Shown in pieces: positions 21,329 to 40,011 of a DNA stretch of 64,000 nucleotides. The notes under the pieces are model-generated. The model searched no databases and was not told where the DNA came from. It saw only the letters and a list, made by a program, of their open reading frames with translations. A program made the position numbers and the translations under genes. The stretch's first letter is position 1. Every line of letters begins with the position of its first letter. Source of the stretch: Anaerolineae bacterium (GTDB lineage: Bacteria; Chloroflexota; Anaerolineae; JACIWR01); contig JANLFX010000006.1 of the NCBI GenBank assembly GCA_024653325.1, positions 2,803 through 66,802 of the forward strand, given 5' to 3'.

Positions 21329-21362
21329 AATCATTTTCCCCTTTAGTTTCTACCAAAACCGG

Positions 21363-21389
21363 GTGGGACAGGCTTAAAGCCTATCCTAC
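21363..21389. repeat. GTAG-flanked hairpin element just upstream of the glnA RBS
   Basis: Minus strand GTAGGATAGGC tttaa GCCTGTCCCAC. Confidence 0.75.
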
Positions 21390-21405
21390 TAAACTGGACA
21401 CTGGC

Positions 21406-21549
21406 GATTTTGCTCGTAGTAACGACTTTAGTCGTTCAGGGCGTGCTGAAAGCGAGTAAAGTCGCTACTACGAACCCGATTTTGCTTGTAGTAACGACTT
21501 TAGTCGTTCAGGGCGTGCTGAAAGCGAGTAAAGTCGCTACTACGAACCC
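21406..21549. repeat. 2 x 72 bp tandem repeat in the glnA leader; each unit folds into a 22-bp-arm hairpin
   Basis: Units 21406-21477 and 21478-21549 differ at one base. Within a unit, cgtagtaacgactttagtcgtt pairs with agcgagtaaagtcgctactacg (2 mismatches, 1 GU). Confidence 0.95.
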
Positions 21550-21620
21550 TACCTCTTGTGCTCCCCAGGTTGCTGAGTCCAAGATGTGGGTGTCTCCAAA
21601 ATTCGCCAGACTCCAGCTAC

Positions 21621-21651
21621 TAAAAACAAAAAGGGCACAACGCATGTGCCC
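21621..21651 (-). terminator. rho-independent terminator after the ANTAR regulator gene
   Basis: Minus strand GGGCACA tgcgt TGTGCCC followed by TTTTTGTTTTT. Confidence 0.85.
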
Positions 21652-21760
21652 TGACCACGTCTTTGTACTGAGGGCCCTTTGGCTAGGCGAGATGCCCGCT
21701 CACCTGGAATACCGCTGTGCGTGAGCTGTCTGATAAGTTCCGTTGTGTCCGTATCGCAGG

Positions 21761-22345
21761 TTATCCTTCCTTCGCCTGATGGGCCAGGATAATGGCCTCC
21801 GCTACTTCTTTCATCGGCTTACGGGTGTTCATACTCATCTTCTGAATTTTGCAAAAGGCCTCGGCCTCGGTCAGACCCTGCGTGTCCATTAGAATACCTT
21901 TGGCCCGGTCCACGAATTTGCGCGTTTCCAGCGCCTGTTTAAGATCGCCCACCTCTTTCTCCAAAGCGCGGAATTCGTTGAAGCGGGCCAGGGCTACTTC
22001 GATGGCCGGAGCCAGGTCTCCTTCATGGAAAGGCTTAACGATATAGCCCGTTACCCCTGCTTCCTTGGCCCGTTCGACCAGCTCGCGCTGGCTATAGGCA
22101 GTGAGCAGCACCACGGGCGCGATCCGTTCTTCCGTCAGTATGGCCGCGGCTTCGATGCCGTCCATGTCCGGCATCTTGATGTCCATGATGACCACGTCTG
22201 GACGCAGTTCGCGGGCCAGGTTAACGGCGCTACGGCCATCACCTACCTCTCCTACGACCAGGTAATCCAGATTAGTCAGCATTTCCCGCAAATCTTTGCG
22301 GATCAGGGATTCATCGTCGGCAATGATGACTCTTGTGCGTTCCAA
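21761..22345 (-). CDS. response regulator with ANTAR RNA-binding output domain (PdtaR/AmiR-like)
   Basis: TTG 22345 lies 8 nt after GGAGG, one base past the kinase stop. RVIIADDE...DVVIMDIKMPDMDG receiver domain. C-terminal RKFVDRAKGILM...KIQKMSMNTRKPMKEVAEAII is ANTAR-like. Confidence 0.9.
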   Translation of the reverse strand: MERTRVIIADDESLIRKDLREMLTNLDYLVVGEVGDGRSAVNLARELRPDVVIMDIKMPDMDGIEAAAILTEERIAPVVLLTAYSQRELVERAKEAGVTGYIVKPFHEGDLAPAIEVALARFNEFRALEKEVGDLKQALETRKFVDRAKGILMDTQGLTEAEAFCKIQKMSMNTRKPMKEVAEAIILAHQAKEG

Positions 22346-22346
22346 T

Positions 22347-23828: not shown

Positions 23829-23958
23829 GAACGCTCCACTCCGGGGCATTCTGGGTTACGTTTTTGTCAGGTTTGCTGGTTATGAAGAATGGCCGACAGC
23901 GAGAGAAAACCATCGGCCATCCTGGCTGGCGAAAGGCACAACGCCAGTCGCCTCGAAT

Positions 23959-24036
23959 TGGTCGGGGCGGCCGGATTTGAACCGGCGACCCCTTGAACCC
24001 CATTCAAGTGCGCTAGCCGGACTGCGCTACGCCCCG
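23959..24036 (-). tRNA. tRNA-Pro (anticodon GGG), CCA encoded
   Basis: rc: CGGGGCG TA GCGC agtccggcta GCGC a CTTGA atGGGgt TCAAG gggtc GCCGG ttcaaat CCGGC CGCCCCG A CCA. Confidence 0.9.
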
Positions 24037-24083
24037 ACGACGGGATATTATAACAGATAGCTGTGGATTTGGCAAGTTCGTAA

Positions 24084-24106
24084 GCGCAGGCTTAAGCCTG
24101 TGCTAC
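24084..24106. repeat. GTAG-flanked hairpin in the tRNA operon spacer
   Basis: Minus strand GTAGCACAGGC ttaa GCCTGCGC. Confidence 0.7.
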
Positions 24107-24111
24107 TTTGA

Positions 24112-24183
24112 TGGGCCCTGCTGGGTTCGAACCAGCGACCAACCGGTTATGAGCCGGTCGCTCTGCCGCTGAGCTAAGGGCCC
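24112..24183 (-). tRNA. tRNA with CAU anticodon, probably tRNA-Ile2 (lysidine type) rather than elongator Met; no CCA encoded
   Basis: rc: GGGCCCT TA GCTC agcggca GAGC g ACCGG ctCATaa CCGGT tggtc GCTGG ttcgaac CCAGC AGGGCCC A. It lacks the three G-C pairs of an initiator anticodon stem. C4-C5, the variable loop UGGUC and the T arm resemble E. coli ileX as I recall it. Confidence 0.85.
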
Positions 24184-24185
24184 TC

Positions 24186-24260
24186 TGGAGCGGGAGACGG
24201 GATTTGAACCCGCAACCCACGGCTTGGAAGGCCGATGCGCTACCGTTGCGCTACTCCCGC
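24186..24260 (-). tRNA. tRNA-Gly (anticodon UCC), CCA encoded
   Basis: rc: GCGGGAG TA GCGC aacggta GCGC a TCGGC ctTCCaa GCCGT gggtt GCGGG ttcaaat CCCGT CTCCCGC T CCA. Confidence 0.9.
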
Positions 24261-24263
24261 GTG

Positions 24264-24338
24264 TCGGGGCGGGCGGACTCGAACCGCCGACCTCGCGGTC
24301 CCAAACCGCGCGCTCTAACCAACCTGAGCTACGCCCCG
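24264..24338 (-). tRNA. tRNA-Pro (anticodon UGG), no CCA encoded
   Basis: rc: CGGGGCG TA GCTC aggttggtta GAGC g CGCGG ttTGGga CCGCG aggtc GGCGG ttcgagt CCGCC CGCCCCG A. Confidence 0.9.
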
Positions 24339-24384: not shown

Positions 24385-24410
24385 GTGGGACAAGCTTAAG
24401 CTTCTCCTAC
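24385..24410. repeat. GTAG-flanked hairpin whose GTAG supplies the TAG stop of the nuclease gene
   Basis: Minus strand GTAGGAGAAGC ttaa GCTTGTCCCAC. The TAG is at 24409-24407. Confidence 0.8.
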
Positions 24411-25237
24411 AGAGCGATCTCGGCCACCTGTTCCAGGTCAACGTCGAAATCCGTAAGGGCGGTGGCCTGCTCGTCAGCGAGATCGTTCAATGGACCGGTG
24501 GTGATTTTTCTTGCGCAGAGTGAACGATAATGGCAGAAGAGACAGAGGCGCTCATCTGGGGTAAGGGGCCAGATCGCCTCGTTATGCTGTCCAATCTCCG
24601 CAACAAGTCTATGGAGATAGTCGCTATCGGCCAGGAACTGCCCGGTATCATAGGGGAAATATTCGGGTTGGGTAGGATAGTCGGCGAACCAGTATATCAT
24701 CTGCACCTGTTCTGGCCTGACGGGTTGCTTTTCGTTCAAGGGGGTACCGGCTTCGACCAAAAGATAGCGGTAGAGGCGCGTTTGCAGGCGGCTTTCCAGT
24801 GTTGAGCGCGCTGGACGGCGTGGCCCGGTCTTCCAATCTACAATAACCAGGCGTTCGCCAGGGGTCACGGCCACCAGATCGTACTTGGCTACCAGACGAT
24901 AGCCGCTCAGTGGGGCGGAAAGTACTATCTCCGCGCGGCGCAACCGGGAGGGCAGGGCGGGGGGCGGGGCCGTGAGGTAGTTGTGCCACCAACGGGCCAG
25001 GTCTGGATCGGTCACCGCGCGGGTCAGCACATCGGCGGGGATGCCCAATGTGTGCTGATAGACCAGACGATGGAATGCCTGTCCCATTTCCATGCGCTTT
25101 TCGGCTTCCGCCAGGGGCTCGGCCTGGGGCGCAGGCCAGGTGCACTGGAGAAGGTATCGCAACTGGAAACGGCGGGGACAGTCCACGTAGTCTTGCAGAT
25201 TCCCCTGGGTGAACTGAAAATTGGAGGGTATGGGCAT
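24407..25237 (-). CDS. PD-(D/E)XK nuclease, Cas4/AddB-like with four-Cys cluster motif
   Basis: ATG 25237 (MPIPSNFQFTQGNLQDYVDCPRRFQLRYL) follows AAGAGGA; ATG 25252 is an alternative. IVDWKTG (DxK motif). N-terminal Cys plus C-terminal CLFCHYRSLC gives the Cx(n)CxxCx5C pattern of Cas4-type Fe-S nucleases. Confidence 0.8.
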   Translation of the reverse strand: MPIPSNFQFTQGNLQDYVDCPRRFQLRYLLQCTWPAPQAEPLAEAEKRMEMGQAFHRLVYQHTLGIPADVLTRAVTDPDLARWWHNYLTAPPPALPSRLRRAEIVLSAPLSGYRLVAKYDLVAVTPGERLVIVDWKTGPRRPARSTLESRLQTRLYRYLLVEAGTPLNEKQPVRPEQVQMIYWFADYPTQPEYFPYDTGQFLADSDYLHRLVAEIGQHNEAIWPLTPDERLCLFCHYRSLCARKITTGPLNDLADEQATALTDFDVDLEQVAEIAL

Positions 25238-25294
25238 GGTGTCCTCTTTCATGGCCAGTGGTCAGTTGCTGGTTGCTAGCAACCGGCAACTGGT

Positions 25295-25701: not shown

Positions 25702-26454
25702 CTACAGAATGTGAGCCAGGAATCGCTTGGTACGTTCCTCTTTAGGGTTGGTAAGAAGCTCGTCAGGTGGGCCCATTTCGACCCAAACCCCTTCGTCCAT
25801 GAAAATTATTCTATCGGCCACGTCACGGGCGAAGTGCATCTCATGGGTAACGACGACCATGGTCATGCCCTCGTTAGCCAACCGTTCCATCACCTCCACG
25901 ACCTCGCCGATCAACTCGGGGTCGAGAGCGGAAGTAGGTTCGTCGAAGAGCATGATCTTGGGTTCCATGGCTAGAGCACGGGCAATGGCTACCCGTTGCT
26001 GTTGTCCACCTGACAGGCGGGACGGGTACTCATCTCTTTTTTCCGAGAGGCCGACCCAGGCCAGCAGTTCTTCAGCCTTAGCAATGGCTTTTTCCTCGGG
26101 CATTTTTTTGACGGTAATGGGGGCCTCGATGATATTGCCCAGGGCGGTCATGTGCGGAAAAAGGTTGAATTGCTGAAAGACCATACCGGCCTTCTGGCGA
26201 ATCTCCTGAATGCGCCGCCGGTGCTCGCGGCCCGGCTCCCTGGCCCTGATCTCCACCCCATCAATCTCCACGGTGCCATCTGAGGGCTCCTCCAGAAAGT
26301 TGAGGCAGCGCAGAAAAGTGCTCTTGCCTGCACCTGAGGGACCAATGATGACCACTACTTCACGAGGCATCACCTCCAGGTCCACACCCTTGATGACGTG
26401 CAGGGGGCCGAAATATTTATGCAAGCCGTGCACCTTGATTATCGGTTCAGTCAT
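25702..26454 (-). CDS. polar amino acid ABC transporter ATP-binding protein (GlnQ/HisP-like)
   Basis: ATG 26454 ([16 protein letters not shown]). [28 protein letters not shown]. Confidence 0.9.
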
Positions 26455-26507
26455 TCCATCCCTCCAACCTTCCAGCCTTCCGTCTTCCACCCTCCCATCC
26501 TCCCCCC

Positions 26508-28676
26508 TTACCTCCTCTCCCCACGGGCCATGTAGGTTTCCAGCTTGCCCTGGAAGAACTGGAAAACAATGGTCAAAATCCAGTAAAAAGCAGCCGCAAT
26601 GAGGAAAGTCTCCAGGTTCCGAAAGTTCTGCCGGCCAAGCTTTTGGGCCCGAAAAGTCAATTCCTGTACGGTGATCATAGACACCAGGGCCGAGTCCTTC
26701 ATCATGGCGATGAATTCATTGCCGATGGGCGGGATAACAATACGCAGGGCCTGGGGCATAACAATGCGACGGAAAGTTTGGCTGGATGACATGCCCAGGG
26801 CGTGGGCCGCCTCATACTGCCCGATGCCAATGGCTTGAATGCCGGCCCGGAAGATCTCGGTCATGTAGGCCCCGTAATTGACCCCTAAAGCCAGGATGCC
26901 GGCCAGTTTAGGTTCCAAAGTGATGCCGAGCTGCGGCAGTGCCAGGTACCAGATGAAAATCTGAACCAGCAGGGGCGTGCCTCGGATGAGGGAGATGTAA
27001 AAGCCGGAGATGCCATTAGCTGCCGGGTTGTTAGATAACCGGGCCAATGCGCCTATTAGGGCCAGGATGGTGGCCAGGGCAATGGCCGCCGCCGAGATGA
27101 ACATCGTCAGCCCTGCGCCGCCCATGATAAAGGGCAACCACTTGCGCATAAAGGCAATGTCCAAGCCAAAGCGACGCAGCACGGAAAAGAGCAATATGAA
27201 AATGAACAGCCACGTGGCCATGACGAACAGCCCAAAACGTATATTCCCAGATCGCCGGGCCGCCATCAACTGTTCAGCCAGAGAGGTCGCCTCGGGAGCC
27301 TGGTAGGGAATGGCAATAGCATCATGTCGGATATAGGCTACCAGGAAGATATACCAGACGAGCAGGAGTATCAACGGCCAGGCGATGTTGAGTCGAACGC
27401 TCCAGGAGATGGGGTAGGCAGTAGTTTCCAGAAGGGGGAGCACAATGCTGAACAATGGACCGATGGTGTACAATGCCAAAGATCCCAGATGCCCCCAGGT
27501 ATGCACACGCCACAGCCCCCAGGCCAGCACCAAACCCAACAGGCCACTGCCCAGCATCCAGGCGGCCAGCACCGTCCCCCACACCGGCATGAGACCCAGC
27601 CTGGTCCATACCAGATGACGCTCCAGTTGATTGACGCCGTCCCACAGTCGGACACTTCCATCGGATCCGCCGGAGATAATCGTGTCTGCATCAGCGCCAA
27701 AAGCCACGCTGGTCACTGTACCGAGGTGACCTCCGAAGAGGCCAGCAAACTTGCCACCGGACACCCTCCAGCGGCGGACGTAGTTATCCGCACCGCTGGA
27801 GAGAAGATATTCACTGGAAGCATCGAAAACTACTTTGGTGACTGAGGCCAGATGCCCCTTCGTCGCCCAGGCAACCTTACTCTTCTCAATGTCCCAGATG
27901 AGGACGGTACCCCCGTCACTTCCCGAGGCCAGGTAATTGCCATCAGGGCTGAAGGCCAGGGCGGTCACTTTTTCACCCTGACCTGGCTGGCCTTCCGTTT
28001 CTTCGCCCTCTACGTATCCCTCCAGTCTGTGCAAGGAGATTCCAGTACGGGCTTCCCAAATCTGGATTTGCTCACCGTCACCAGCAGCCACCAGGGTGCC
28101 GTCGTGACTAAGAGCCACGGCCAATTTGGTACTCTCGCCGGGACCGATGGCCTGGAGCACCTGCCCTGATTCTGGGTCCCACACGCGGACGATACCGTCC
28201 TTTCCTATCGTGGCTAGAAGCGAGCCATTGGCAGCCACGGCCAGGCTGTTCAGCGGTCCATCGGCGGTAGCCAGTACTTTTTTAGCCTGACCGCCAGTTG
28301 AACCGGCGCTGAGCACTGTCTGGACATCCCATATCAGGACCTTACCGTCCTGACCAACCGAGAACAAAGTTGAAGCGGAGGAATCAAAGGCCACACCGGT
28401 GACCGGGCCAGTGTGGCCAGCGAGGGTTAGCATGTTCCACCCGTTAGCTATATTCCACAGGCGAATTGCTCCATCCTGTGCGCCGGCGGCGACCAGGTTG
28501 CCGTCGCCACTCACTGCCAGGTCATACACCGGGCTGGTTACGGCTAACCGCAGCGGTCCGCCGGCATAGTATTGGATGCCATAAAGCAGACTCAGTCCGG
28601 CGGTGAGGGCGACCAGCAGGCATAAAAGTTTCATCGCCCTCGAAAGAGGGAGGTGTGAACCGGTTGAAATATCCAA
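26508..28676 (-). CDS. fusion: signal-anchor + seven WD40 repeats + four extra TM helices + polar-amino-acid ABC permease (HisM/GlnP-type)
   Basis: TTG 28676 lies 9 nt after GAGGAG. Seven repeats of the type [10 protein letters not shown]....L.S.G.DG.V.IWD. C-terminal part: [17 protein letters not shown]..., EAA loop [26 protein letters not shown]. Confidence 0.85.
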
Positions 28677-28739
28677 TGCCCTTATCTCCTCATCAGTACT
28701 TGTTTACCGCCTATCCCAAAAGTGGTTGTAGTAGCGGCT

Positions 28740-28765
28740 GTAGGACAAGCTTAAGCTCGTCCTAC
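28740..28765. repeat. GTAG-flanked hairpin whose GTAG supplies the TAG stop of the OppF-like gene
   Basis: GTAGGACAAGC ttaa GCTCGTCCTAC. On the minus strand the TAG is at 28764-28762. Confidence 0.8.
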
Positions 28766-29757
28766 ATAGTATCGTGATGGCAGGCTACGAAATGATCTTT
28801 CTGTACCTCACGCAGCTCTGGCTCGACTTTAGTGCATTCTTCCTGGGCAGCGGGACAGCGCGGGTGGAATCGGCAACCAGTAGGTGGGTTGATCGGGTTA
28901 GGGATTTCTCCCCGCGGCATGGCCGCCGTGCGGCGGAAACGTGGATCGGGGACGGGCACCGCGGCCAACAGCGCCTGGGTGTAGGGATGCAGTGCATGGC
29001 GGTATACATCGGTTAATCGTCCCATCTCCACGATGCGGCCCAGATACATGATGGCAATACGGTCGCAGATGTATTTGGCAGTGGCCAGGTCGTGGGTGAT
29101 GAAAAGGTAGGTCAGGTTGAAATCCTGTTTCAGTTGTAACATCAGGTCTAGGAGCAAAGCTCGTACCGAGACGTCGGCCATGGCGATGGGTTCGTCGGCG
29201 ACGATGAGGTCCGGGTGCAGGATCAGCGCCCGGGCGATGACGGCTCTTTGTCGCTGCCCGCCACTCAGTTGATGCGGGTATTTGTTGTACAGAACGTGGG
29301 CCGGGGTCAGTCCCACGCGCTCCATCATTTCTAACACCCGGCGGCGTTTCTCTTCTCCTCGGGCCTCGTCGAAAATCACCAGGCTGTGGCCGATGGCGTC
29401 GCCAGTCTTCATTCTGGGGTTCATGGAGGCCAGCGGATCCTGGAAGATGACCTGCATACGCTTTCGCATCCGGCGCATTTCTTCTTTGCTCAGCGAGGCC
29501 AGGTTCACTCCGTCGAACACGATGTTTCCGTCGGTCGGCTCTTCCAGACGCAGGATCAGTCGTCCGGTCGTCGTTTTGCCGCTCCCGCTTTCGCCCGCCA
29601 GCCCAAAGACCTCGCCACGACGGATGTCGATGTCTATCCCGTCTACGGCATGCACGAATTGCCGCTGGCGAGTTACCAGGCGTTCGATGAAGCTTTTCTG
29701 GACAGGAAACCACTTTTTCAGGCCCCTGACCTCAACCAGGTTCTCGGATTCCGGCAT
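28762..29757 (-). CDS. oligopeptide/dipeptide ABC transporter ATP-binding protein (OppF/DppF-like)
   Basis: [28 protein letters not shown], and the C-terminal oligopeptide-type extension with [12 protein letters not shown]. Confidence 0.9.
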
Positions 29758-29779
29758 TTACTCTCCTCTGTCAGCAGGT

Positions 29780-30742
29780 TTATTTCTCATACAGCCAACA
29801 AGCGGTCCAGTGGCCAAGCTCTACTTCCTTAAAGAGCGGCTCCTCGACGCGACAGCGCTCCATCGCGCGGGGGCAACGGGGGTGGAACCGACAGCCAGGG
29901 GGCGGGTTGATCAGATCAGGCGGTGATCCGCTCATAATCTGCAGGCGGTCTTCGGTGAGGCTGATGTTGGGCACTGAACTCAAGAGCCCTCTGGTATAAG
30001 GATGAAGGGGAGTATCAAAGAGGGGGAGAGCCTCAGCCAATTCCACCAGCTTACCGGCGTACATCACCGCTACCCGGTCGGCCAGTTCGGCCACGACACC
30101 GATGTTGTGGGTGATAAGGATGATGGTCAGCTTGAACTGCTGTTGCAGGTCTCGGAGCAGGTCCAGAAACTGGGCCTCGACGATCACGTCCAACGAGGTT
30201 GTCGGCTCATCGGCGATGATCAGGTCGGCGTTCAGGGCCAGGGCCAACCCAATCATCACCCGCTGGCGCATACCACCGCTGAACTGGTGTGGGTAATCGT
30301 CCAGCCGTTCAGCTCTGATGCCCAGTCGGTCAATCAACTGCGCTGCCAGCCGGCGGGCTTCATGCTTGTCCTGAGACCCATGAGTACGGATGGTCTCAAG
30401 GAAATGATCGCTGATGCGCTGCAAGGGGTTCAGGCAGGTCATAGGGTCTTGAAAGACGGTGGAGATGCGTGCGCCACGAAGGCGGCGCATTTCTTCCTCG
30501 CTCAACTCCAACAGGTTCTGGCCGTCGAAAATGATCTTGCCGCCGACGATTTTGCCGGGCGGGCGTAACAAGCGCAGGATAGCCATGCCCAACGTGGATT
30601 TGCCACAGCCCGATTCACCTACCAGGCCCAGCACTTCGCCGCTGTACACCGTCAGGCTAACGTCATCCACTGCCCGCACGATGCCGGCTCTGGTGGGATA
30701 ATCTATGCGCAAATTGCTTATCTCTAAAACCCGCTCGTTCAT
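29780..30742 (-). CDS. oligopeptide/dipeptide ABC transporter ATP-binding protein (OppD/DppD-like)
   Basis: ATG 30742 is in an ATGA overlap with the permease stop. [40 protein letters not shown]. Confidence 0.9.
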
Positions 30743-31992
30743 ACTTCGGCCAACCTCGGATTCAATATCTCGCTCAGTCCCTCGCCGAACATGCTGAAGC
30801 CCATCGCCACCAGGATAATCATCAGGCCGGGGAAGGTTACCATCCACCACTGACCGGCGGCCAGAAATTGCCGGCCTTTACTGATGTCGTATCCCCAGTC
30901 CGGGGTCGGCGGGGGCAGGCCCAGGCCGATGAAACTCAAACCGGCCTCGGTCAATATGGCATCGGCGATGTTGACTGAGAAGATGACAACGATAGAGGCA
31001 ATCACGTTGGGAAAGATGTATTGGAAGAGAATGGTCAGCGGCCTGGCGCCCAGACTGCGGGCCGCTTCAATGTAGAGTTGCTGTTTGATGGCCAGGACCT
31101 GTCCACGGACCATTCTGAAGAAAGTTGGCATGTAGACCACCGCAATGGCCACGGTGGTGGTCATCGTGCCGGTGATCACCGCAGTCTGGTCACCGCTCAG
31201 TCGCAGGCCAACGGCTCCCGTGACGTTTTTCAGCACCTGTTGCATCTGGAGTTGCAGCACTGCGGCCATGGCGATGGCCAGGATGAGGCCCGGAAAGGAG
31301 TAGATGCTGTCCATGATGAGAGAAAGGACGCGGTCAATCGTGCCCCCGATGAAGCCGGAAAGCAACCCCGTGGGTACCCCCACCAATGCCGAGAATCCGG
31401 CTGACAGGATGGCTACCAGCAGTACTGCCCGCGCACCGAAGATAATGCGGCTCAGGATATCGCGGCCCAGGTTGTCGGTGCCTAACACGAAGGTCGGGCC
31501 GAAGGGTGCCCCGATCTGTTTCAACCGATCACCGTAAGCCGACATGAGTGCAGGGGCCACATTTTCCTCCACCAGGAGAGCATCCACCTGGCCCGCGGCC
31601 AGGGCTTCAAAGCACTCCTCGATTTTATAGAACTTCTTGACCTTAGCATTCAGTTCCAGGGCGCAGAACTGGCCGGTGGTATTGGCCCGCACGCCCACCA
31701 GGGTTCCAGCCAGGTCGGCGGGCTGCTGGATGGTCTCCTCGTCGGAGCGCACGATCAGAACCTGACGCCCTTTGCCCGGTGGGGTGAAGGGTGAACCGAC
31801 AGACTTGACGGGATCGTAAGGGGCCAGATGGGGGGCCAAAATGGTCATCAGGAAAATCAAAATCAGGATAACAGCACCGGACACAGTAATGTACCACTCG
31901 GCGCCGTACCATTTTGCGCCCCTGAAAAAACGGGCAATGAGGCCGATGTTCTCATCAAAAGTCAGGCTGGTTTCAGCAGATTGAATGGCCAT
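30739..31992 (-). CDS. OppC/DppC-type ABC permease with a roughly 100-aa binding-protein-lobe-like insert in the first external loop
   Basis: TM1, then ...DLAGTLVGVRANTTGQFCALELNAKVKKFYKIEECFEALAAGQVDALLVEENVAP... precedes the canonical LGTDNLGRDILSRIIFGAR. The EAA region is present. Confidence 0.85.
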   Translation of the reverse strand: MAIQSAETSLTFDENIGLIARFFRGAKWYGAEWYITVSGAVILILIFLMTILAPHLAPYDPVKSVGSPFTPPGKGRQVLIVRSDEETIQQPADLAGTLVGVRANTTGQFCALELNAKVKKFYKIEECFEALAAGQVDALLVEENVAPALMSAYGDRLKQIGAPFGPTFVLGTDNLGRDILSRIIFGARAVLLVAILSAGFSALVGVPTGLLSGFIGGTIDRVLSLIMDSIYSFPGLILAIAMAAVLQLQMQQVLKNVTGAVGLRLSGDQTAVITGTMTTTVAIAVVYMPTFFRMVRGQVLAIKQQLYIEAARSLGARPLTILFQYIFPNVIASIVVIFSVNIADAILTEAGLSFIGLGLPPPTPDWGYDISKGRQFLAAGQWWMVTFPGLMIILVAMGFSMFGEGLSEILNPRLAEV

Positions 31993-32003
31993 GATTTATC
32001 GTC

Positions 32004-33434
32004 CTAATAACGAATGCGCGGGTCAATGTAAGCGTAGATAATATCCACGAGCAGGCTGACGCCGGCAACCAAAAAAGCGAACACCACGATCGTGCCCTGA
32101 ATAGTGGAGAAATCGCGGTCGTATATGCGGCGCACCAGCATGTTGCCCAGGCCCGGCCATGAGAAAGTCGTTTCGGTGAGGACGGCGCCGGCCAGCAGCA
32201 GGGCAAACTGCAAGCCCATCATGGTGAGAATAGGGATGAAAGCATTCTTCAAAGCGTGCTTGTAGACCACTACCCGCTCCGGGATGCCCCGCGCCCGGGC
32301 AGCCACGATGTAATCCTGCCGCAGGACGTCCAGCATGTTCGAGCGGGTAAGCCGGGTGAAAATACCGGATAGATAAAGCCCCAGTGTGAGGCTGGGCATG
32401 ATCAGGTACTTGATAGAGCTGACCAGGCTGGTGGCATTCCCCGTCAACAGGCTGTCCAGCACGTAAAGGCCCGTGATCTGCCGGGGAGCTATTTCTGGGC
32501 CAATGCGCCCGGCGACGGGCAGCCACCCGAGGCGGACTCCCAGGATCATCTGCAGGACCAGGCCTAGCCAGAAAATGGGCACGGAATAGATGATGATGCT
32601 GAAGATGCGCAGGCCGTAGTCCAGGGGACTCCGGCGTTTTTGAGCAGCAAAGGCCCCGGTCGAGACGCCGATGAGCATAGTGACGATCATCCCTCCCACG
32701 GCCAATTCCACCGTGGCCGGGAATCGGTCGGCGATCTCCGATAACACCGGGCGTCTTTGGGTCATGGACGTGCCGAGATCGCCGTGCAGCAGATTCCAGA
32801 GGTAGATGAAGTACTGGCTGTCGAAGGGGTTAATCCGTATCTCGAACCGCTCAGATGGGGCCCACCCCTCTGTTTGCCTGGTGGTGATGACTTCGGCCCA
32901 GTCTCCCTCTACTCTTACCCTCTTGATAGTCTCTCCTGCGCTCAGGTGTTCGACCACCTTGCTGCCTGCGGTATCGGCGTAAATATCGGTTTCGGATGCG
33001 GCTCGCGCTGTAGAGAAGAGCCGTTCTCGAAGGCCGATGCGCAGATCTTTTACCCGTACCCAGCCTTGCACCTGTTCGGTGGCTGCCAGCCAGAGCCAGC
33101 CCTCTTCGGAAGTCCAGCCGGTGATCCTGAGTTTTTCTTCTTTCTCAATCGGTCGCAGGATCCGCGAGTCTGTCTTGGGCTTTTCGTAAAGATTTGCCGT
33201 CTCTTTGGCAATGGCTGTGCTACCCCGAAAGTTGAAAAGCACTGGCTTATCCAACCCCAATGCGTGCCGCAGGTTTCGGAGTTGCTCCTCGGACGCCGTC
33301 TCCCGCAACATGGCCAGCGCCGGGTCACCGGGCATGACGCGCAGGATGACAAACACCAGGGTGACCAGAATCAGCACCATGGGCACGGTCATGAGCAGGC
33401 GGGTGAGGATGTGCGCACGCAGTGACGATCCCAT
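32004..33434 (-). CDS. OppB/DppB-type ABC permease with a roughly 150-aa insert resembling two SH3b domains
   Basis: ATG 33434 lies 8 nt after AGGAG (the ORF-track N-terminal extension is rejected). LGLDKPV, then ANLYEKPKTDSRILRPIEKEEKLRITGW...GWVRVKDL and TDIYADTAGSKVVEHLSAGETIKRVRVEGDWAEVITTRQTEGWAPSERF, then QYFIYLWNLLHGDLGTS. Confidence 0.85.
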   Translation of the reverse strand: MGSSLRAHILTRLLMTVPMVLILVTLVFVILRVMPGDPALAMLRETASEEQLRNLRHALGLDKPVLFNFRGSTAIAKETANLYEKPKTDSRILRPIEKEEKLRITGWTSEEGWLWLAATEQVQGWVRVKDLRIGLRERLFSTARAASETDIYADTAGSKVVEHLSAGETIKRVRVEGDWAEVITTRQTEGWAPSERFEIRINPFDSQYFIYLWNLLHGDLGTSMTQRRPVLSEIADRFPATVELAVGGMIVTMLIGVSTGAFAAQKRRSPLDYGLRIFSIIIYSVPIFWLGLVLQMILGVRLGWLPVAGRIGPEIAPRQITGLYVLDSLLTGNATSLVSSIKYLIMPSLTLGLYLSGIFTRLTRSNMLDVLRQDYIVAARARGIPERVVVYKHALKNAFIPILTMMGLQFALLLAGAVLTETTFSWPGLGNMLVRRIYDRDFSTIQGTIVVFAFLVAGVSLLVDIIYAYIDPRIRY

Positions 33435-33515
33435 TAAGATTACTCCTGCATTTTGCGAAAGAGAGGGGTTTTGGCAGGCCAGCCAGCGCCCACCAAGACC
33501 CCTCATTGCTATCTT

Positions 33516-33541
33516 GTAGAACGGGCTTAAGCCCGTTTTAC
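33516..33541. repeat. GTAG-type hairpin between the binding-protein gene and the permease gene
   Basis: GTAGAACGGGC ttaa GCCCGTTTTAC. Confidence 0.75.
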
Positions 33542-33547
33542 TACCAC

Positions 33548-35944
33548 TTATTCCTTGCCGATCAGGAAGTAGTGGAGCTGCATCAGCGGGTCCAGGGTGA
33601 TGCCCGTGACACCCTTTGCGTAGGCGATGTACAACGCACCCTGCGCAAACGGGGTGGTGGGGTTCTCCTCGAACCACATTTCCTGGATCTGCTCGTAGAG
33701 TTGCGCCCGCTTGGCCTGATCGGTCTCCACTTGCGCAGCCTCCAGCAGGGCATCCATCTCAGGATTGCTGTAGTAGGTGCCGATACCCTTGGTGGCCGTG
33801 GAATGGGCGAAGGGCCAGGTGTAGTTGTCGGGGTCCAGGTAGTCTGGGTACCAACCCAGCAGGAAGACGGGCATGGAGCCAGCGTTGCGGTACTGCTTGT
33901 AGGTAGCCCACTCGGCGCTCTGCAGGTTGATCTGGATCACCCCGGTGGCCTCGTACTGGTCCTTGATGAGGGCCACCACGTCGGCCTCGGTGTCGCCGTA
34001 GTGATCCGGGCTCCACCACAGGTCCATCACCAGCGGGTTGCTTTCGTTGAACCCGGCTTCGGCCAGCAAGGCTTTGGCCTGCTCCAGGTCAGGCTCCTCG
34101 GGGTAGAAGACTTTGTGGCCCAGGAAGCCCGGCGGGATCATGCTGTAAAGCGGCACCTTGGTCCCCTGGAAGCCGACATCGGCGATCTGCGCCCGGTCGA
34201 GGCACAGGGCCAGCGCCTTGCGCACACGGGGATCGTCGAAAGGCTTGGTCTGGGATTGGTAGCACACGTAGCGGATCTCGGTGCCTGGTCCCTGCTCTAC
34301 CACGATGTTCGGGTTGGCGCGCAGGCGTTCTAGGTCAGCTGGCAGGAGGGTCTTCCAGGCTACGTCAATCTCCCCGTTCTCCAGGGCCAGGGCCATGGCC
34401 GCAGCGTCGGCGAAGTAGCGGACAATGATCTTGTCGGCGACGGCAGGTTTGCCGTAGTAGGTCGGGTTGCGCTCGAAGACTGCTTCCTCGTCCCGCTTCC
34501 AACTGGTGCAGACGTAGGGGCCGATACCACCGGAGTAGTTATCCGCCTGGTACTCAGTGGTGCTCCACAGATTGGGGTTCAAGATCTTGTAGGGGTTGGT
34601 CGCCACCAGTTGCGGGAAGAAGCCGACCGGGGCCTTGAGCACAAACTTGACCGTGTAGTCGTCTATCTTCTCGATGTGGTCCACGTAGGCGGACACCAGG
34701 AAGGCCACCTCACCGGCCAGGGTCTTCTCCATGTCAATGACCCGGTTGATGGTGAATACCACGGCGTCGGCATTGAAAGGCGTACCATCGGGGAAGGTGA
34801 CGCCCTGTTTGAGCTTGAAGGTATATTCCAGGCCGTCCTCGCTGATAGTAGGCCAGTCGGCGGCCAGGCCCAGTTCGAGCTCACCGGATGTGCCTGGCAC
34901 GTTGTTCAGCAGGCCATCGGCGATCTGATGCGTGAACTCCCAGTCGGGGAAACTGTAGGCATCGGCGGGGTCAAGCGTGGCCGGCTTGTCGGTGGTGCCG
35001 ATGATGATGCGGACTTCGGCTTCCCCTGGCTTCACCTTCTTGGTGATGTCTATACCGTACCACTTCAGCGAGAGCTTGGTCAGGGTGCCGTCTTCGTGCA
35101 TGGCAGCGATGATCTCGTTGAACTTGGCCAGGGCTTTGTCGCTGGGGCCGCGCTTCTTATCCAGGGCAAAAGCCAGCGGCTCGTAGAAAGCCGGGGTACC
35201 CACGTACTTGAGTGGCACGCCGCTGTCAATCGCGTTCTGGATTGTGGGCTGAGCGGACATCACGGCATCCAGGCGGACACCGTCACCCAGAGCTAGGTCC
35301 TGGATCGCCTCGGCGTCAGTGCTATAAGGCACTACCTGGACACCCGCCGGCGGGTCGTACATGATTTCCCCGCCCAGGATTTGCAGTTTCCCGGCCAGGT
35401 AATCCTCGTAAGTGGTGGCCGTGCCGAGCCCCACCTTCTTGCCCGCCAGGTCTTCCACCGAGGTGATGGTAGTGTTATCTTTGTGAACGGCGAAAGAAGC
35501 GGGGGTGTAGTAGTAAGGATCGGTGAACCACAGGACCTCCGCACGAGCCTCGGTAGGGGTCATGGAGCCGATGCTCACGTCCCAACGGCCGCCCCAGTTA
35601 CCGGCGGTGATCATGTCCCAGTCCGGGGTGACGAACTCCACCTGCACTCCCAGGCGCTTGGCCACTTCCTGAGCGACGTTGATGTCAAAGCCGTCAAGCT
35701 CGCCCTTATCGTTCAGGAAGCTCTGCGGGGCGTAGTTGGGGTCGGTGGAGACCACCAGTTTGCCCGCTTCCATGATTTGATCCAGCAGGCCCTTTTCCGC
35801 TGCTGGTGGGCTGGTGGGAGTGGGGGTGGGCTTCTCCGCTGGAGGCGCAGTGGGAGCTACCGTGGTTTTGGGTGGGCAGCCGGTGAGCGCTGCCAGCACC
35901 AAGCTGAGAATTACGAATATGCTCAGAATACGTAGTGTTTTCAC
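33548..35944 (-). CDS. two-headed substrate-binding lipoprotein: family 3 (amino-acid type) domain fused to family 5 (peptide/nickel type) domain
   Basis: GTG 35944 lies 6 nt after GGAGGAG. Lipobox LAALTGC and a Pro/Thr linker. GKLVVSTDPNYAPQSFLNDKGELDGFDINVAQEVAKRLG (family 3). Then TLDPADAY...IADGLLN...LAADWPTISEDGLEYTFKLKQGVTFPDGTPFNADAVVFT (family 5) through to the C-terminus. Confidence 0.85.
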   Translation of the reverse strand: MKTLRILSIFVILSLVLAALTGCPPKTTVAPTAPPAEKPTPTPTSPPAAEKGLLDQIMEAGKLVVSTDPNYAPQSFLNDKGELDGFDINVAQEVAKRLGVQVEFVTPDWDMITAGNWGGRWDVSIGSMTPTEARAEVLWFTDPYYYTPASFAVHKDNTTITSVEDLAGKKVGLGTATTYEDYLAGKLQILGGEIMYDPPAGVQVVPYSTDAEAIQDLALGDGVRLDAVMSAQPTIQNAIDSGVPLKYVGTPAFYEPLAFALDKKRGPSDKALAKFNEIIAAMHEDGTLTKLSLKWYGIDITKKVKPGEAEVRIIIGTTDKPATLDPADAYSFPDWEFTHQIADGLLNNVPGTSGELELGLAADWPTISEDGLEYTFKLKQGVTFPDGTPFNADAVVFTINRVIDMEKTLAGEVAFLVSAYVDHIEKIDDYTVKFVLKAPVGFFPQLVATNPYKILNPNLWSTTEYQADNYSGGIGPYVCTSWKRDEEAVFERNPTYYGKPAVADKIIVRYFADAAAMALALENGEIDVAWKTLLPADLERLRANPNIVVEQGPGTEIRYVCYQSQTKPFDDPRVRKALALCLDRAQIADVGFQGTKVPLYSMIPPGFLGHKVFYPEEPDLEQAKALLAEAGFNESNPLVMDLWWSPDHYGDTEADVVALIKDQYEATGVIQINLQSAEWATYKQYRNAGSMPVFLLGWYPDYLDPDNYTWPFAHSTATKGIGTYYSNPEMDALLEAAQVETDQAKRAQLYEQIQEMWFEENPTTPFAQGALYIAYAKGVTGITLDPLMQLHYFLIGKE

Positions 35945-36301
35945 AGTTCTCTCCTCCTTCGTAATATCGCATGGCACTCAATAAGCGACTTCGGATTTCA
36001 TTGGATACGCTTCTTGGTCTGGATGACATCACCTCCTTTCAAATTAAAATTACAGCCATTGTGAAACTCTGCGTTGAGTGGTTGGTGAGGAGTTAGTCGG
36101 CGGTTAGGCGGTCTTGTGACTGGGACTGGAAAGTGGTGAGTCTGGCCCATCACCTGGGAGGGCGGGGGTATGGATCGGGTTGGCAAACCCGACCTCCGGT
36201 ACCTGCCTGCTCCGAATCTTACCCTGAGCAGGGTCGAAAGGACAACCGAAAGGGGCAAGCTGCTCCCTGCACCCCCGCTTGAGTCTGAATAATTGCGTAT
36301 T

Positions 36302-36330
36302 AGTATAATAGAAATGGCCCAAGCTGTCAA
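36302..36330 (-). promoter_or_regulatory. near-consensus internal promoter (TTGACA - 17 nt - TATACT) overlapping the stop codon of the upstream binding-protein gene
   Basis: Minus strand TTGACA (36330-36325; the TGA stop 36329-36327 lies inside it), 17-nt spacer, TATACT (36307-36302). Predicts a leader of about 350 nt before GTG 35944. Confidence 0.5.
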
Positions 36331-38630
36331 GGTGACGTTTTAAGCGCGTTTTCCCTGAAGCCTGCAAACACGAGTTTAAAGAAACGGAATTCCCCTTGCC
36401 GTCCACGGTGATAGCGGTTCTCTTCATCCCACCAGCGTTCAAAATTGAACACCACGGCGTTGGCGTCAAGAGGGGTGCCGTCCTGGAAAATTATTCCCTG
36501 GCGCAGGTAGAAGGTGTAGGTCAGCCCGTCGTCGGAAACGGTATAATGCTCCGCCAGCCAGGGTTCTGGCGTGGAAGTGCCTGGCTTGAAACGCATTAAC
36601 CCTTCGGTGATCTGACTACCTACCTGCCAGGCGGTGGGATCAGTCTCGTCGGCCAGGTCCAGGCCCGGCGGTTCGCCGGACAGGGCATGAGTGTAGGTCT
36701 GCTGGCCATTGCTCGCCAGGCGGAAGTCCTCGCAGCCGATGGCGCTTGGGGTGAGGCCCGCTACTGACTTCTGCGCACCCAGGGTTTCGGCAAAAGCCAC
36801 CAGAGGCACGACCAGAGCTTCGTCGTAGATGGCCTGGTTGATTTGACTGTAGAGTTTCTGCCGCTGACCAGGGCTGGGCTGGCCGCGCGCTTTTGCCAAC
36901 AGCTCCAGTAATTCCGGGTTAACAGCGCTGCCCAGGGAGGTATTTGTCGGCGTCAGGATGGGCGTCAGATAGCTATCGGCGTCGGGGATGGTCGAAGCCC
37001 AACCCAGGATGGCCAGAGGCGCTTTGCCGCCGATGACCTGATCGCTGAAAGTCAGAAGATCAGCAGTGGTTATCTGTACGGTGACGCTGATTGCTGCCAG
37101 GTCCTTCTGAATGGCCGCCGCTACCTGAGCAGGAGCGGCCGTCAGGTAAGGGGGTAGGGCCGGTGGCACCCACAGCGTGGTGGTGAAGCCCTGGGTATAG
37201 CCGACGGAGGCCAACAGCGAGCGTGCTTTGCCAGGATCATAGGTATAAGTGGGCGCTTTCTTGTCGTATCCGAAAACCGCTGGCGGGATCAGGCTGCGGG
37301 CCACCTGGCCGTTTTCGGGGAACGCCGTCTTTACCAGACCTTCGCGGTCTATAGCGTGATTCAGGGCCTGCCGCACCTGAAGGCTGTCCAGCGGGGCAAA
37401 GTCCTGATTGATGGCCAGATAACCAATGGCCCGCGCCGGGCGAAGGAGCACCTGAGTCGCTTTGTTTTCTTTCAGCGTGGCCATAGCTGGCAGGGATAGC
37501 CCGTCGGCACTATCCACTGTGCCGCTGAGCACGGCCTGGGCCCGCAGTTCGGGGTCGGGGGTGATGGTGAAGATCAGGGTTTGCGTTTTGGCCGGTTCGC
37601 CCCAATAGCTCTCATTGCGGGTGAGGATGATAGCCTCGCCCGCTTTCCATTCCGTCAATTGGAAGGGGCCGGTGCCCACCGGATGCCGATACAAGTCATT
37701 GGGGTGCTCACGGATGGCCGTGGGGCTCATCAGGCCCAGGGGAGGCATGGCCAGGCTGGACAGGAAAGTACCATCCGGTCGGTTGAGGATGATCTGGACG
37801 GTGTATTCGTCCAGGGCAGAGACGAACTTGATGAGCCCTTTTGGTTCGGGGATAACCAGTTCCGGCGGGGTGGTCCACTTGTGGATCAGTTCATCTATCA
37901 GGCCTTGGGCTTGGACGGTGGACAGGCCGGCGTTGAGTTTATCGCGCAGGGCAGTATTGCCTTGGCGCACGGCGATGCCCAGGTATTCGGTGGTGAAAGG
38001 TTCACCAGCAATTTGGAGTTGGCCGTCGTAGCTGTACACAAAATCGAAAGCAGCCGGGGCCGCGGTGACGACGGCGTCAAGTTGTTTATTAGCCAGGTCC
38101 ACGAAAGCCAGGTCAATCGTGTCGTAAGTCTGAATGACGGCGCCTTCGATTTTCTCGACGGCCTCGGCGCCGGCGGAACGCAACTGGACGCCAACCTTAC
38201 GCCCGACCAGGTCGCGGTGACTGTGGATGTCCTCCGTTCCAGTGCGCACGACGACCACCTGCCCGGCGTTAAGATAGGGTTGAGTGAAGTCGGCCAGCTC
38301 CTCCAGTTCGGGGGTGATGCGCAGAGAGGAGATCACTGCGTCGAACTGGCCCGCGTCCAACCCGGCGATGAGGGTGTTGGCGGGCGTGTCCACGAATTCG
38401 GCCTCCAGACCCACCGCTTCGGCGACGGCCCGCATCAAATCCACGTCCAGCCCTACCAATTCGCCCTGCTCGTCGAGGAATTCCATTGGTGGCTGGGTGG
38501 CGCTCGTGCCGACAATAATAGTAGTAGCCTCCGGGCGTGGCGGTGTGGCCACCTCGATGGGTGCGCAACCGGCCAATGCCAAGGCGACCGCTACTGTGAT
38601 CAGGGCGGCCATTATAATTTTGACTCTCAC
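36327..38630 (-). CDS. second two-headed binding lipoprotein: family 3 domain + circularly permuted family 5 domain
   Basis: GTG 38630 lies 7 nt after GGAGGG. Lipobox LALAGC. TSATQPPMEFLDEQGELVGLDVDLMRAVAEAVG (family 3). The family 5 part starts mid-domain (VSALDEYTVQIILNRPDG...PVGTGPFQL...). The usual N-terminal segment (ITEGLMRFKPG...WLAEHYTVSDDGLTYTFYLRQGIIFQDGTPLDANAVVFNFERW) sits at the C-terminus. Confidence 0.85.
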   Translation of the reverse strand: MRVKIIMAALITVAVALALAGCAPIEVATPPRPEATTIIVGTSATQPPMEFLDEQGELVGLDVDLMRAVAEAVGLEAEFVDTPANTLIAGLDAGQFDAVISSLRITPELEELADFTQPYLNAGQVVVVRTGTEDIHSHRDLVGRKVGVQLRSAGAEAVEKIEGAVIQTYDTIDLAFVDLANKQLDAVVTAAPAAFDFVYSYDGQLQIAGEPFTTEYLGIAVRQGNTALRDKLNAGLSTVQAQGLIDELIHKWTTPPELVIPEPKGLIKFVSALDEYTVQIILNRPDGTFLSSLAMPPLGLMSPTAIREHPNDLYRHPVGTGPFQLTEWKAGEAIILTRNESYWGEPAKTQTLIFTITPDPELRAQAVLSGTVDSADGLSLPAMATLKENKATQVLLRPARAIGYLAINQDFAPLDSLQVRQALNHAIDREGLVKTAFPENGQVARSLIPPAVFGYDKKAPTYTYDPGKARSLLASVGYTQGFTTTLWVPPALPPYLTAAPAQVAAAIQKDLAAISVTVQITTADLLTFSDQVIGGKAPLAILGWASTIPDADSYLTPILTPTNTSLGSAVNPELLELLAKARGQPSPGQRQKLYSQINQAIYDEALVVPLVAFAETLGAQKSVAGLTPSAIGCEDFRLASNGQQTYTHALSGEPPGLDLADETDPTAWQVGSQITEGLMRFKPGTSTPEPWLAEHYTVSDDGLTYTFYLRQGIIFQDGTPLDANAVVFNFERWWDEENRYHRGRQGEFRFFKLVFAGFRENALKTSP

Positions 38631-38736
38631 CCCGCGTTCCCTCCGGAAGTGTAATATTTGAATCGTCGTAATTAGCGATTCTCCAGCAGGTTGCTGCTGA
38701 TCGGTAACAACTCCAAGTGCCTGGGCAGAGGCACTG

Positions 38737-40011
38737 TTACTGGCCTTGTACGTTGCGCAGAACGACGGGCAGGTAGGCCACACTCGCTGCCTGCTGAACA
38801 CTGACGGTGACTTCTTGAGTAGGCCAGTTCTGCTGCCAACCGAACCAGGTCACCCCTTCCTTGACCATGTCCCACTTCAGGACGTAGGTCCCCGGCTGGA
38901 GAGGGGCCAGGACCTTGGCATTCAGCCACACATCGCCGCTTGGCCCCACGTCCTGGCCCAGATCGGTGCGCAGCCCGTCTCAGGTGATGACGTTTTGGCC
39001 GCTGCTATCGTACCAGTGGTACGATAGACGCACCGGGTTGCTGCCCCCGTGACTCCACGTCGCGTTGCCCGTGTTCTGGATGCGCATTTGCACATTATAA
39101 CCCATTCCGGTCAGCATGGTAGTAGGCGTGTGAGACAGGGGACCATAGTAATCCTCGCCGTACGTGCCGTGAAAGCGGATGTCCGGCGTCACGTCCAGCC
39201 AGGCCCAGCGATAGTTGTAGTCCGCGCCCGACAGCCGGACGTGGGCGTAGTAGTGAGTGAGCATCTGGCGGTAGTCCCAGGGGGCGGCGCCGGCATAGCC
39301 GGTCAGCTCCCAGGCGTGGGTGGCGTTCTGTGACATGCCCGGTTGGTGAGTGCCGATGGCGTTATTGCTGTCCACCGGGTCGGGGACGGAGACCAGGGTC
39401 TCAGATTCCAGTGAACTGCTGGCGGTGGGATTGCCGCAGTTGGCGAAGTACTTGGCGCAGGCATAGTCCCAGTCCGAGCGGAAGACCCGCACAAGAAGGG
39501 TGTCGTTTACCGCGTCGCGATGCGCCTGAGTGATGGTGTTCTGGCCTGTCTGCTGGGCGGGATTGAGCCAGTAGCTTTGTGACCAACTATTCTCCACTGA
39601 AAGCGACGTGAAAGGTGGCCAGGGAAGGTTATGGGTACGAGCGAGAACGGCACCACAACCTGGACCTATTTCCCTGTGAGCGAAGGTGTGGATGGCCACC
39701 GCGCCGGCCCGCAGGGCTTGATCCTGCGACAACCAATGCCACTCGTTGGCCAGCACCTGGGGCGCGTAGGCAGTACCGGTAACAGTGTCGAAATCGTAGC
39801 CAATAGGACCGAAATCTTGCTCTGGATCGCTGCATCGCCTGCCACAGACGTAGACCCATTCGAAGCCGCCCTGATAAACCGGGTGCTCATTGGGAGCGTG
39901 CGGATTGCCGGCATAGACAGGTGTTTGAGTAGACCTTTCAATCTCTATCGCAGCACACAGGATCACGATGGCAACGAAGGACGGGCAAACTGCTCTGGGC
40001 ATGGCTTTCAT
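38737..40011 (-). pseudogene. secreted protein with C-terminal Ig-like (NBR1-like) domain, interrupted by one in-frame TGA (38982-38980)
   Basis: ORFs 38980..40017 and 38737..38949 share one frame. The read-through sequence ...SYHWYDSSGQNVIT*DGLRTDLGQDVGPSGDVWLNAKVLAPLQPGTYVLKWDMVKEGVTWFG is a single continuous domain. ATG 40011 lies 6 nt after GGGAGA. N-terminal signal-anchor present. Confidence 0.7.

Follow-up and report, generated by a model that had tools for sequence, protein, structure and literature searches.

A type I ABC importer is usually considered complete with a permease core, ATPases and a binding protein, and accessory ectodomains are rare in this class. One open reading frame in a 64,000-nucleotide stretch of DNA from an Anaerolineae bacterium (hereafter the window, meaning the whole stretch that was analyzed) raises the question of what a WD40 beta-propeller does on the permease of such an importer. 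The first-pass annotation, made from the letters of the window, had read four parts in a single ORF, namely an anchor, seven WD40 blades, four transmembrane (TM) helices and a permease core with its EAA loop. Pfam, NCBIfam and AlphaFold2 agreed on these parts and on their order, and we delimited them as follows.

26508..28676, minus strand: ORF of the WD40-decorated polar-amino-acid ABC permease, 722 aa from TTG 28676 or 708 aa from ATG 28634
28563..28676, minus strand: short basic N-terminal tail and TM1, a predicted retained signal-anchor helix (residues 1–38; AlphaFold2 helix 13–38)
27606..28541, minus strand: seven-blade WD40 beta-propeller, predicted extracytoplasmic (residues 46–357; Pfam, AlphaFold2, Foldseek)
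27171..27605, minus strand: four extra TM helices, the "xTM" module (residues 358–502; AlphaFold2 helices, fixed length)
26508..27170, minus strand: ArtQ/GlnP/TcyL-type permease core with five TM helices (residues 503–722; 4yms_D, NCBIfam, Pfam)
26745..26822, minus strand: EAA coupling loop (residues 619–644; read from the translation and aligned to ArtQ)

The TTG start has GAGGAG 9 nt upstream. The GenBank record (GCA_029907125.1, JARYML010000010.1) uses ATG 28634, 14 codons further in; the two starts differ by a short cytoplasmic tail only.

Domain composition and conservation

The C-terminal part of the protein was assigned from several independent models. PF00528 (BPD_transp_1) covered residues 540–713 (E 3e-26, 92.9 bits against a cut-off of 26.4), the N-terminal three-helix signature TIGR01726 (HEQRo_perm_3TM) covered residues 514–611 (93.7 bits against 42.2), and residues ~506–721 aligned end to end with the NCBIfam models of TcyL (cystine), EhuD (ectoine) and GlnP (glutamine). 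With BPD_transp_1, the EAA loop, the 3-TM signature and the gene partners described below, the core belongs to the polar-amino-acid type I ABC importer permease family. Its closest solved sequence was ArtQ of Art(QN)2 (4yms_D; E 8e-42, aligned end to end over residues 505–719), and the mean column identity of the core was 0.86. Scores fell below the equivalog cut-offs for TcyL (183 against 300), EhuD (177 against 205) and GlnP (145 against 303), so the substrate cannot be assigned, and NCBIfam held no model specific to the WD40–permease architecture. The predicted role of the WD40 importer, as judged from sequence, is ATP- and binding-protein-dependent uptake of amino acids.

The repeats upstream of the core scored as WD40, as the first-pass annotation had proposed: PF00400 matched in six stretches spanning residues ~46–351, far above threshold (E 7e-50, 165.9 bits against a cut-off of 27), and structure prediction yielded a closed seven-blade fold. 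The AlphaFold2 model, calculated from an alignment of 98 homologs, had a mean pLDDT of 82 and a pTM of 0.75; pLDDT was about 90 or above in the propeller and in the extra helices. In this model, a helix at residues 13–38 is followed by 28 strands (residues 50–357) that form seven blades of four, the first being strand a of blade 1 and the last strand d of blade 7. Foldseek returned seven-bladed WD40 structures as the best matches of the modeled propeller, led by PkwA (5yzv; TM-score 0.92 on target, 31% identity) and including the WRAP-T designs (TM-score ~0.9 on target, 31% identity) and WDR5.

Between propeller and core, the model placed the xTM helices at residues 364–389, 393–418, 425–450 and 466–502, with a short amphipathic helix at 452–459. 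A sequence search found no solved relative of this module, and its invariant residues are W357, W366, W373, S377, Y442 and W489. The 171-residue segment comprising the propeller end, the four extra helices and the core start had an identical length in 97 of the 98 homologs. An exhaustive profile search of 1.84 billion representative proteins recovered the xTM module in only eight clusters.

The window DNA comes from a metagenome-assembled genome, a circumstance that favors reading the fusion as an assembly chimera or a frameshift artefact. Searches for the domain combination spoke against this reading. A homology search retrieved at least 120 clusters (90% identity) of 700–750 aa proteins with both WD40 and BPD_transp_1; these homologs were 50–91% identical over 96–100% of the query and came from ENA, JGI, NCBI and Logan assemblies. 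Those with names bore the label "ABC transporter permease subunit" or the label "polar amino acid transport system permease protein" and belonged to Chloroflexota/Anaerolineae MAGs. When GTDB was scanned with a single genome for each species, 41 loci were found, and every one of them lay in a Chloroflexota MAG (Anaerolineae, Anaerolineales, Ardenticatenales or "Chloroflexia"). Four independent metagenome runs, hot-spring and microbial-mat samples among them, yielded contigs that spanned both junctions, propeller/TM at ~27605 and TM/core at ~27164, with 85–95% identity; these contigs had no indel within the ORF, all reported indels lying in the intergenic segment 26475–26508. Since these runs contained only 5–7% of the sampled words of the window, they represent related strains, and we used them for junction continuity and not for coverage of this assembly. 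One continuous ORF common to so many independent clusters and genome loci, a linker module of fixed length and contigs crossing both junctions exclude the misassembly or frameshift that the first-pass annotation had named as a concern, and we regard an artefactual fusion as vanishingly improbable. All carriers found were uncultured organisms, and the WD40-permease family is restricted to uncultured Anaerolineae.

Partner genes

The following genes, all on the same strand, surround the WD40 permease.

25702..26490, minus strand: ABC ATPase of the GlnQ/TcyN type, partner of the permease (called from ATG 26454, 250 aa)
28762..33677, minus strand: Opp/Dpp-type genes separating the binding-protein genes from the WD40 permease
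28762–29757, minus strand: OppF
29780–30850, minus strand: OppD
30739–31992, minus strand: OppC with an insert resembling an SBP_bac_3 lobe
32004–33677, minus strand: OppB with an SH3 insert
33548..35977, minus strand: lipoprotein with lipobox LTGC, a Pro/Thr-rich linker and SBP_bac_3 (about 35039–35806) fused to SBP_bac_5
36327..38801, minus strand: second lipoprotein with lipobox LAGC, SBP_bac_3 and SBP_bac_5, a more distant paralog

We compared the neighborhoods of 45 loci, 43 of them distinct. All loci with sufficient downstream sequence had a GlnQ/TcyN-type ATPase gene as the next gene after the WD40 permease, and none of the 45 loci had a second permease gene of the same type alongside it; one locus (L020) carried a separate, unrelated system upstream. 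A single permease gene implies a homodimer, and the recurrence of one permease beside one GlnQ across loci agreed with the earlier suggestion, drawn from the missing second gene, that the complex would display two propellers.

The upstream genes followed two patterns. The first, seen in 15 loci, had a SBP_bac_3 gene, stand-alone or in tandem, whose product was 70–82% identical to residues ~50–317 of the lipoprotein encoded at 33548–35977; this gene stood directly before the permease in 14 of them, with the separate system intervening in L020. In 21 loci, including the window, SBP_bac_3 was fused to an oligopeptide-type SBP_bac_5 (~800 aa), with Opp-type permease genes separating this fusion gene from the WD40 permease; oppD and oppF accompanied them in 10 of the 21 loci and were lacking in the other 11. 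Contigs of the remaining seven of the 43 distinct loci stopped short of the upstream gene. Wherever a contig extended far enough upstream, SBP_bac_3 was thus found there, free or fused. The binding proteins carry lipoboxes followed by Pro/Thr-rich linkers and should therefore be lipid-anchored. In some relatives, the SBP_bac_3 plus SBP_bac_5 lipoprotein has a third binding domain.

The SBP_bac_3 domain of 33548–35977 is likely the cognate binding domain of the WD40 permease. The first-pass annotation had left two options, a propeller in place of a binding protein or in addition to one. The second stood, and the first fell, given the SBP_bac_3 lipoprotein nearby wherever the contig reaches. A scan of the gap between oppF and the WD40 permease gene revealed no convincing sigma-70-like promoter or terminator, and a strong hairpin lies over the oppF stop codon; cotranscription of the WD40 permease with the upstream genes is plausible. 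A search for RNA runs returned none.

Location and role of the propeller

The propeller had been placed outside the cell from the helix count. Four helices separate it from a core whose N-terminus must face outward and whose EAA loop must face the cytoplasm, so that the propeller would be outside as well, with the hydrophobic N-terminal helix available for its export; permeases of the GlnPQ type bear extracytoplasmic binding domains at the same end, the N-terminus (PMC8025302). The strongest support came from a rare sister architecture. Three proteins (P0124, one of the eight xTM clusters, P0128 and P0131) consist of a signal peptide, SBP_bac_3, the xTM module and the core. P0124 shares 56% identity with window residues 367–722 in its membrane part, and 54% with the SBP_bac_3 domain of lipoprotein 33548–35977 in its binding domain. 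TM1 and the propeller are missing from this lineage, and the binding domain joins the xTM module where the last propeller strand would end, with a "W.R.LG"-like motif kept at the junction, as seen by eye. Since that binding domain must be outside, the slot of the propeller is outside too. A further record, P0126, in which the N-terminus of a PLP-decarboxylase precedes a partial xTM module and core, was set aside as probably partial or chimeric.

Conservation, charge and inserts pointed in the same direction. Mean column identity was 0.72 for TM1 and 0.62 for the propeller, and the better conservation of TM1 argues against a cleaved signal peptide. The N-terminal tail has 2.6 Lys and Arg residues on average. 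Over the 98 sequences, the xTM loops predicted inside average 1.8 and 5.3 of these residues and the one predicted outside 0.0, in keeping with the positive-inside rule; the loop between TM5 and the core runs counter to the charge rule with 2.4 on the predicted outside, and the same segment is conserved in canonical permeases. Among the variants, P0122 has a PBP_like_2 domain inserted in its propeller, and P0103 and P0121 have an extra BNR-like propeller between TM1 and the WD40 repeats. The inserts in the TM3–TM4 loop of longer variants received no Pfam name and appeared by eye to be additional hydrophobic hairpins.

Most characterized WD40 domains are intracellular, which counts for an alternative in which the propeller is a cytoplasmic regulatory or adaptor domain behind an N-terminal helix that does not enter the membrane. 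With four intervening TM helices, however, this arrangement would invert the core together with its EAA loop, and it conflicts with the external binding domain that P0124 carries at the same position, with the loop charges and with the conserved hydrophobic TM1. We consider it highly improbable. Taking these results together, we are confident that the fusion is real and conserved, and equally confident of its domain order, of the outside location of the propeller and of the link to one ATPase gene and a cognate binding protein.

The model also constrains how the propeller would sit. Linkers of 11 residues (TM1 to the first strand) and 6 residues (last strand to TM2) connect it to the membrane, and both chain ends exit on the conventional "top" side, that of the d–a loops. 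From the short linkers and the shared exit side, we infer that the rim of blades 7 and 1 there rests on the membrane, a placement derived from WD40 topology and not from coordinates. The whole-chain pTM of 0.75 suggests a fixed arrangement of propeller and TM helices in the modeled structure.

The best overall explanation, to which we assign a probability of about one half, is that the protein is the sole membrane subunit of a polar-amino-acid importer of the ArtQ/GlnP/TcyL class, with a surface propeller whose role as a dock for the binding protein is our best guess, held with less confidence. The basic tail would lie in the cytoplasm and TM1 would be a retained anchor, with the WD40 propeller outside and tied by its two linkers; the four family-specific helices would bring the chain back outside, and the five-TM core with its cytoplasmic EAA loop would end the protein. 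Two such permeases would assemble with two GlnQ-type ATPase subunits (25702–26490), and substrate would be delivered by the lipid-anchored SBP_bac_3 domain, here the N-terminal half of the 33548–35977 lipoprotein. As to what docking might involve, we suggest tentatively, and by analogy, that there is a propeller on either side of the site where the lipoprotein binding protein docks, and that the pair serves as its receptor and holds it close to the translocator. A docking propeller would then be the noncovalent counterpart of fused binding domains and a functional analog of the MalF-P2 loop.

The sister lineage tells most about this proposal, though indirectly. Its operon consists of the fused gene and the ATPase gene only, with no separate binding-protein gene; most simply, it arose when a deletion fused the permease to the binding-protein gene upstream of it. 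Translocation can thus do without the propeller exactly where the binding domain is tethered, as expected if it holds or positions the binding protein, and the lineage amounts to a nearly ready-made natural control. Against docking, the binding proteins are already lipid-anchored, so that their retention at the membrane needs no dock. Conservation was 0.66 for the top-face loops and 0.54 for the bottom-face loops, part of the gap being due to structural GH/DG motif residues, and this comparison did not discriminate for docking.

The neighborhoods also allow a broader role, in which the propeller is a general surface hub for protein interactions that draws partners besides the cognate binding domain, such as the Opp translocator, surface peptidases or envelope or sheath proteins, into a nutrient-uptake supercomplex. 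Opp genes lie between the SBP_bac_3 plus SBP_bac_5 fusion gene and the WD40 permease in 21 of the 43 distinct loci, so that one lipoprotein would have to serve two translocators, and the Opp permeases have extracytoplasmic inserts of their own (the SH3 insert of OppB, the SBP_bac_3-lobe-like insert of OppC and in locus L003, a Reg_prop propeller inserted in OppB). In 15 loci, however, the set is limited to SBP_bac_3, the WD40 permease and GlnQ and the vicinity is free of Opp genes, so that an Opp-specific role cannot be the conserved one, and no other conserved neighbor gene was seen in the compared loci. A general hub therefore appears rather unlikely to us.

A related and bolder picture makes the propellers the platforms of a surface nutrient-capture supercomplex in which a multidomain lipoprotein seated on the WD40 permease feeds two ABC translocators. 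The decorated OppBC(DF) would receive the peptides and the WD40-GlnP/GlnQ importer beside it the amino acids, and in operons without oppDF the single GlnQ-type ATPase might be shared. We rate this picture as a long shot. The position of the WD40 permease among other oddly decorated uptake genes may point to an unrecognized organization of nutrient capture at the cell surface; Anaerolineae are abundant scavengers of peptides and amino acids in mats, sediments and sludge.

The propeller might instead bind a small ligand or peptide itself. It would then either sense the ligand outside the cell and gate transport accordingly, or offer another site at which substrate is captured. Central pockets of WD40 domains can bind peptides and side chains, the WDR5 matches being such binders; in P0124 a substrate-binding domain fills the slot of the propeller, and in P0122 the PBP_like_2 binding domain lies within the propeller. 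To set against this, the cognate SBP_bac_3 is always present and is 70–82% conserved, compared with 37–50% for the propeller, conserved pocket residues were not identified in this analysis, and we know of no type I importer that takes its substrate from a propeller. Direct ligand binding thus seems unlikely, and we retain the docking propeller as the preferred reading.

Comparison with known systems

The architecture had been called undescribed, and the searched literature bore this out: no paper on an ABC permease with a WD40 domain or other propeller was found, and the words transporter and permease are absent from a systematic survey of prokaryotic WD40 proteins. It is nevertheless abundant in sequence databases under generic names. 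To our knowledge, no WD40 or other propeller has been reported as the accessory ectodomain of a type I importer, and the functions of bacterial WD40 domains are almost all unknown; the WD40-permease family gives such domains a defined molecular context. The core and the WD40 fold are already known; what is new is a type I importer variant in which TM1, the propeller and the four helices form an accessory module specific to this family.

The propeller has its best structural match in PkwA of Thermomonospora curvata (PDB 5yzv; PMC6113231, PMC5587647), likewise a canonical seven-blade WD40 domain, which in PkwA is joined to a Ser/Thr kinase. For the core, the nearest known systems are Art(QN)2 of Thermoanaerobacter tengcongensis (4yms) and TcyL, GlnP and HisQM of E. 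coli, which share the core, the EAA loop, the GlnQ/TcyN-type ATPase, the SBP_bac_3 partner and the single permease gene. Those permeases have ~220 aa and no ectodomain, whereas the window protein adds ~500 residues before the core, made up of TM1, the WD40 propeller and four TM helices.

The textbook accessory ectodomain is MalF-P2. This loop of the E. coli maltose importer is a permease ectodomain and a receptor that holds MalE at the transporter (PMC4245157, PMC6906923). Both this loop and the window propeller are large accessory ectodomains on the permease of a type I importer that has a binding protein as well, and the resemblance that we propose is functional only. MalF-P2 is Ig-like, measures ~20 kDa, lies between TM3 and TM4 and belongs to a heterodimeric permease; the window protein has no Ig-like domain at that position and its propeller no homology to MalF-P2, being a 35-kDa WD40 domain placed before the core of a predicted homodimer.

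GlnPQ of Lactococcus lactis (PMC8025302, PMC11331510) resembles the window protein in bearing an extracytoplasmic domain before a GlnP-type core, in two copies per homodimer. The fused part of GlnPQ is a binding domain, whereas Pfam found no SBP domain in the window permease, which carries a WD40 propeller tied to the membrane at both ends and has its binding domain on a separate lipoprotein. P0124, P0128 and P0131 are true binding-domain fusions as in GlnPQ, but they retain the xTM module.

Surface domains and fused binding proteins in the Opp block

Upstream of the WD40 permease gene, which encodes a GlnP/ArtQ-type core bearing a WD40 propeller, we examined two Opp permeases, together with an ortholog at L003, one of the Chloroflexota/Anaerolineae loci (L-numbers) encoding the WD40 permease.

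Window 30739-31992 (-): OppC-type permease, insert at residues ~77-170
Window 32004-33677 (-): OppB-type permease, bacterial SH3 domains (SH3_3, SH3_4) in the first outside loop
L003:3786-6074: OppB ortholog, 762 aa

The OppC insert (~110 aa) lies within the first outside loop and gave no match in Pfam. It aligned with residues 181-274 of the protein encoded at window 36327-38801, with 30% identity over 94 aa (pairwise E 1e-8), and its sequence is similar to that of a single SBP_bac_3 lobe. The L003 OppB carries an insert of ~450 aa that scored as Reg_prop (two-component regulator propeller) repeat. Surface domains on permeases, including propellers, seem to be a recurrent habit of this clade.

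The binding proteins were also found to be composite, both in the window and in relatives.

Window 33548-35977 (-): lipoprotein, SBP_bac_3 + SBP_bac_5 in a single chain of ~800 aa
Window 36327-38801 (-): second such lipoprotein, also a single chain of ~800 aa
L014:739-4569: ORF in which SBP_bac_3 + SBP_bac_5 are preceded by an additional N-terminal part; lipoprotein signal present
L038:746-4606: ORF of the same layout
L044:2-2989: longer binding-protein concatenation
L009:573-2396: tandem SBP_bac_3 domains

In both window lipoproteins, SBP_bac_3 is a polar-amino-acid binding domain and SBP_bac_5 is of the oligopeptide type; because the two share one chain, each protein would, judging from its domains, have to supply two different ABC translocators. 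Concatenations still longer than those of the window were observed in relatives, namely at L014 and L038 (1276-1286 aa), L044 and L009, and in the protein P0157, which combines SBP_bac_3 with a branched-chain-type binding domain (Peripla_BP_6/ANF_receptor).

Eleven loci (L002/L021, L004, L010, L013, L024, L026, L030, L032, L033, L039, and L040, with L002/L021 counted as one) contained neither oppD nor oppF, and their gene order was binding-protein fusion, OppB, OppC, WD40 permease, and GlnQ. These operons thus encode a single ATPase, of GlnQ type, against three permease genes.

Unusual relatives of the permease

Seven family members (P0108, P0091, P0011, P0090, P0085, P0081, and P0098) were longer, at 786-931 aa, with 70-210 extra, strongly hydrophobic residues after residue 423. 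This site falls in the loop that connects extra helices TM3 and TM4 and is predicted to face outside, and from their composition the inserts look like further TM hairpins. The metagenome protein P0126 (641 aa) has an N-terminus like that of PLP-dependent decarboxylases, followed by the end of the four-helix module and a core of the P0124 type, the sister architecture with SBP_bac_3 in the propeller's place. Its record has no start methionine, and it is probably partial or chimeric.

Hairpin and downstream genes

Window 28739-28766 (-): perfect 12-bp GC-rich hairpin
Window 24407-25252: PD-(D/E)XK nuclease-family gene
Window 23959-24338 (-): four-tRNA gene cluster (Pro-GGG, Met-CAT, Gly-TCC, Pro-TGG)
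Window 19997-23849 (-): PdtaS-like histidine kinase (GAF_PdtaS, HisKA_2), ANTAR response regulator, and glutamine synthetase genes

In the gap preceding the WD40 permease gene, this hairpin overlaps with the stop codon of oppF. The surrounding 106-nt region had a folding energy of -32.1 kcal/mol (z -3.6) and no T-tail, and the hairpin may act in the processing or stabilization of mRNA. The transporter block and the nuclease-family gene are closely followed, on the downstream side, by the tRNA cluster. The glutamine synthetase gene adjoins the kinase and ANTAR regulator genes, all near the amino-acid/peptide uptake block, and the kinase and regulator may form a nitrogen-related regulatory pair.
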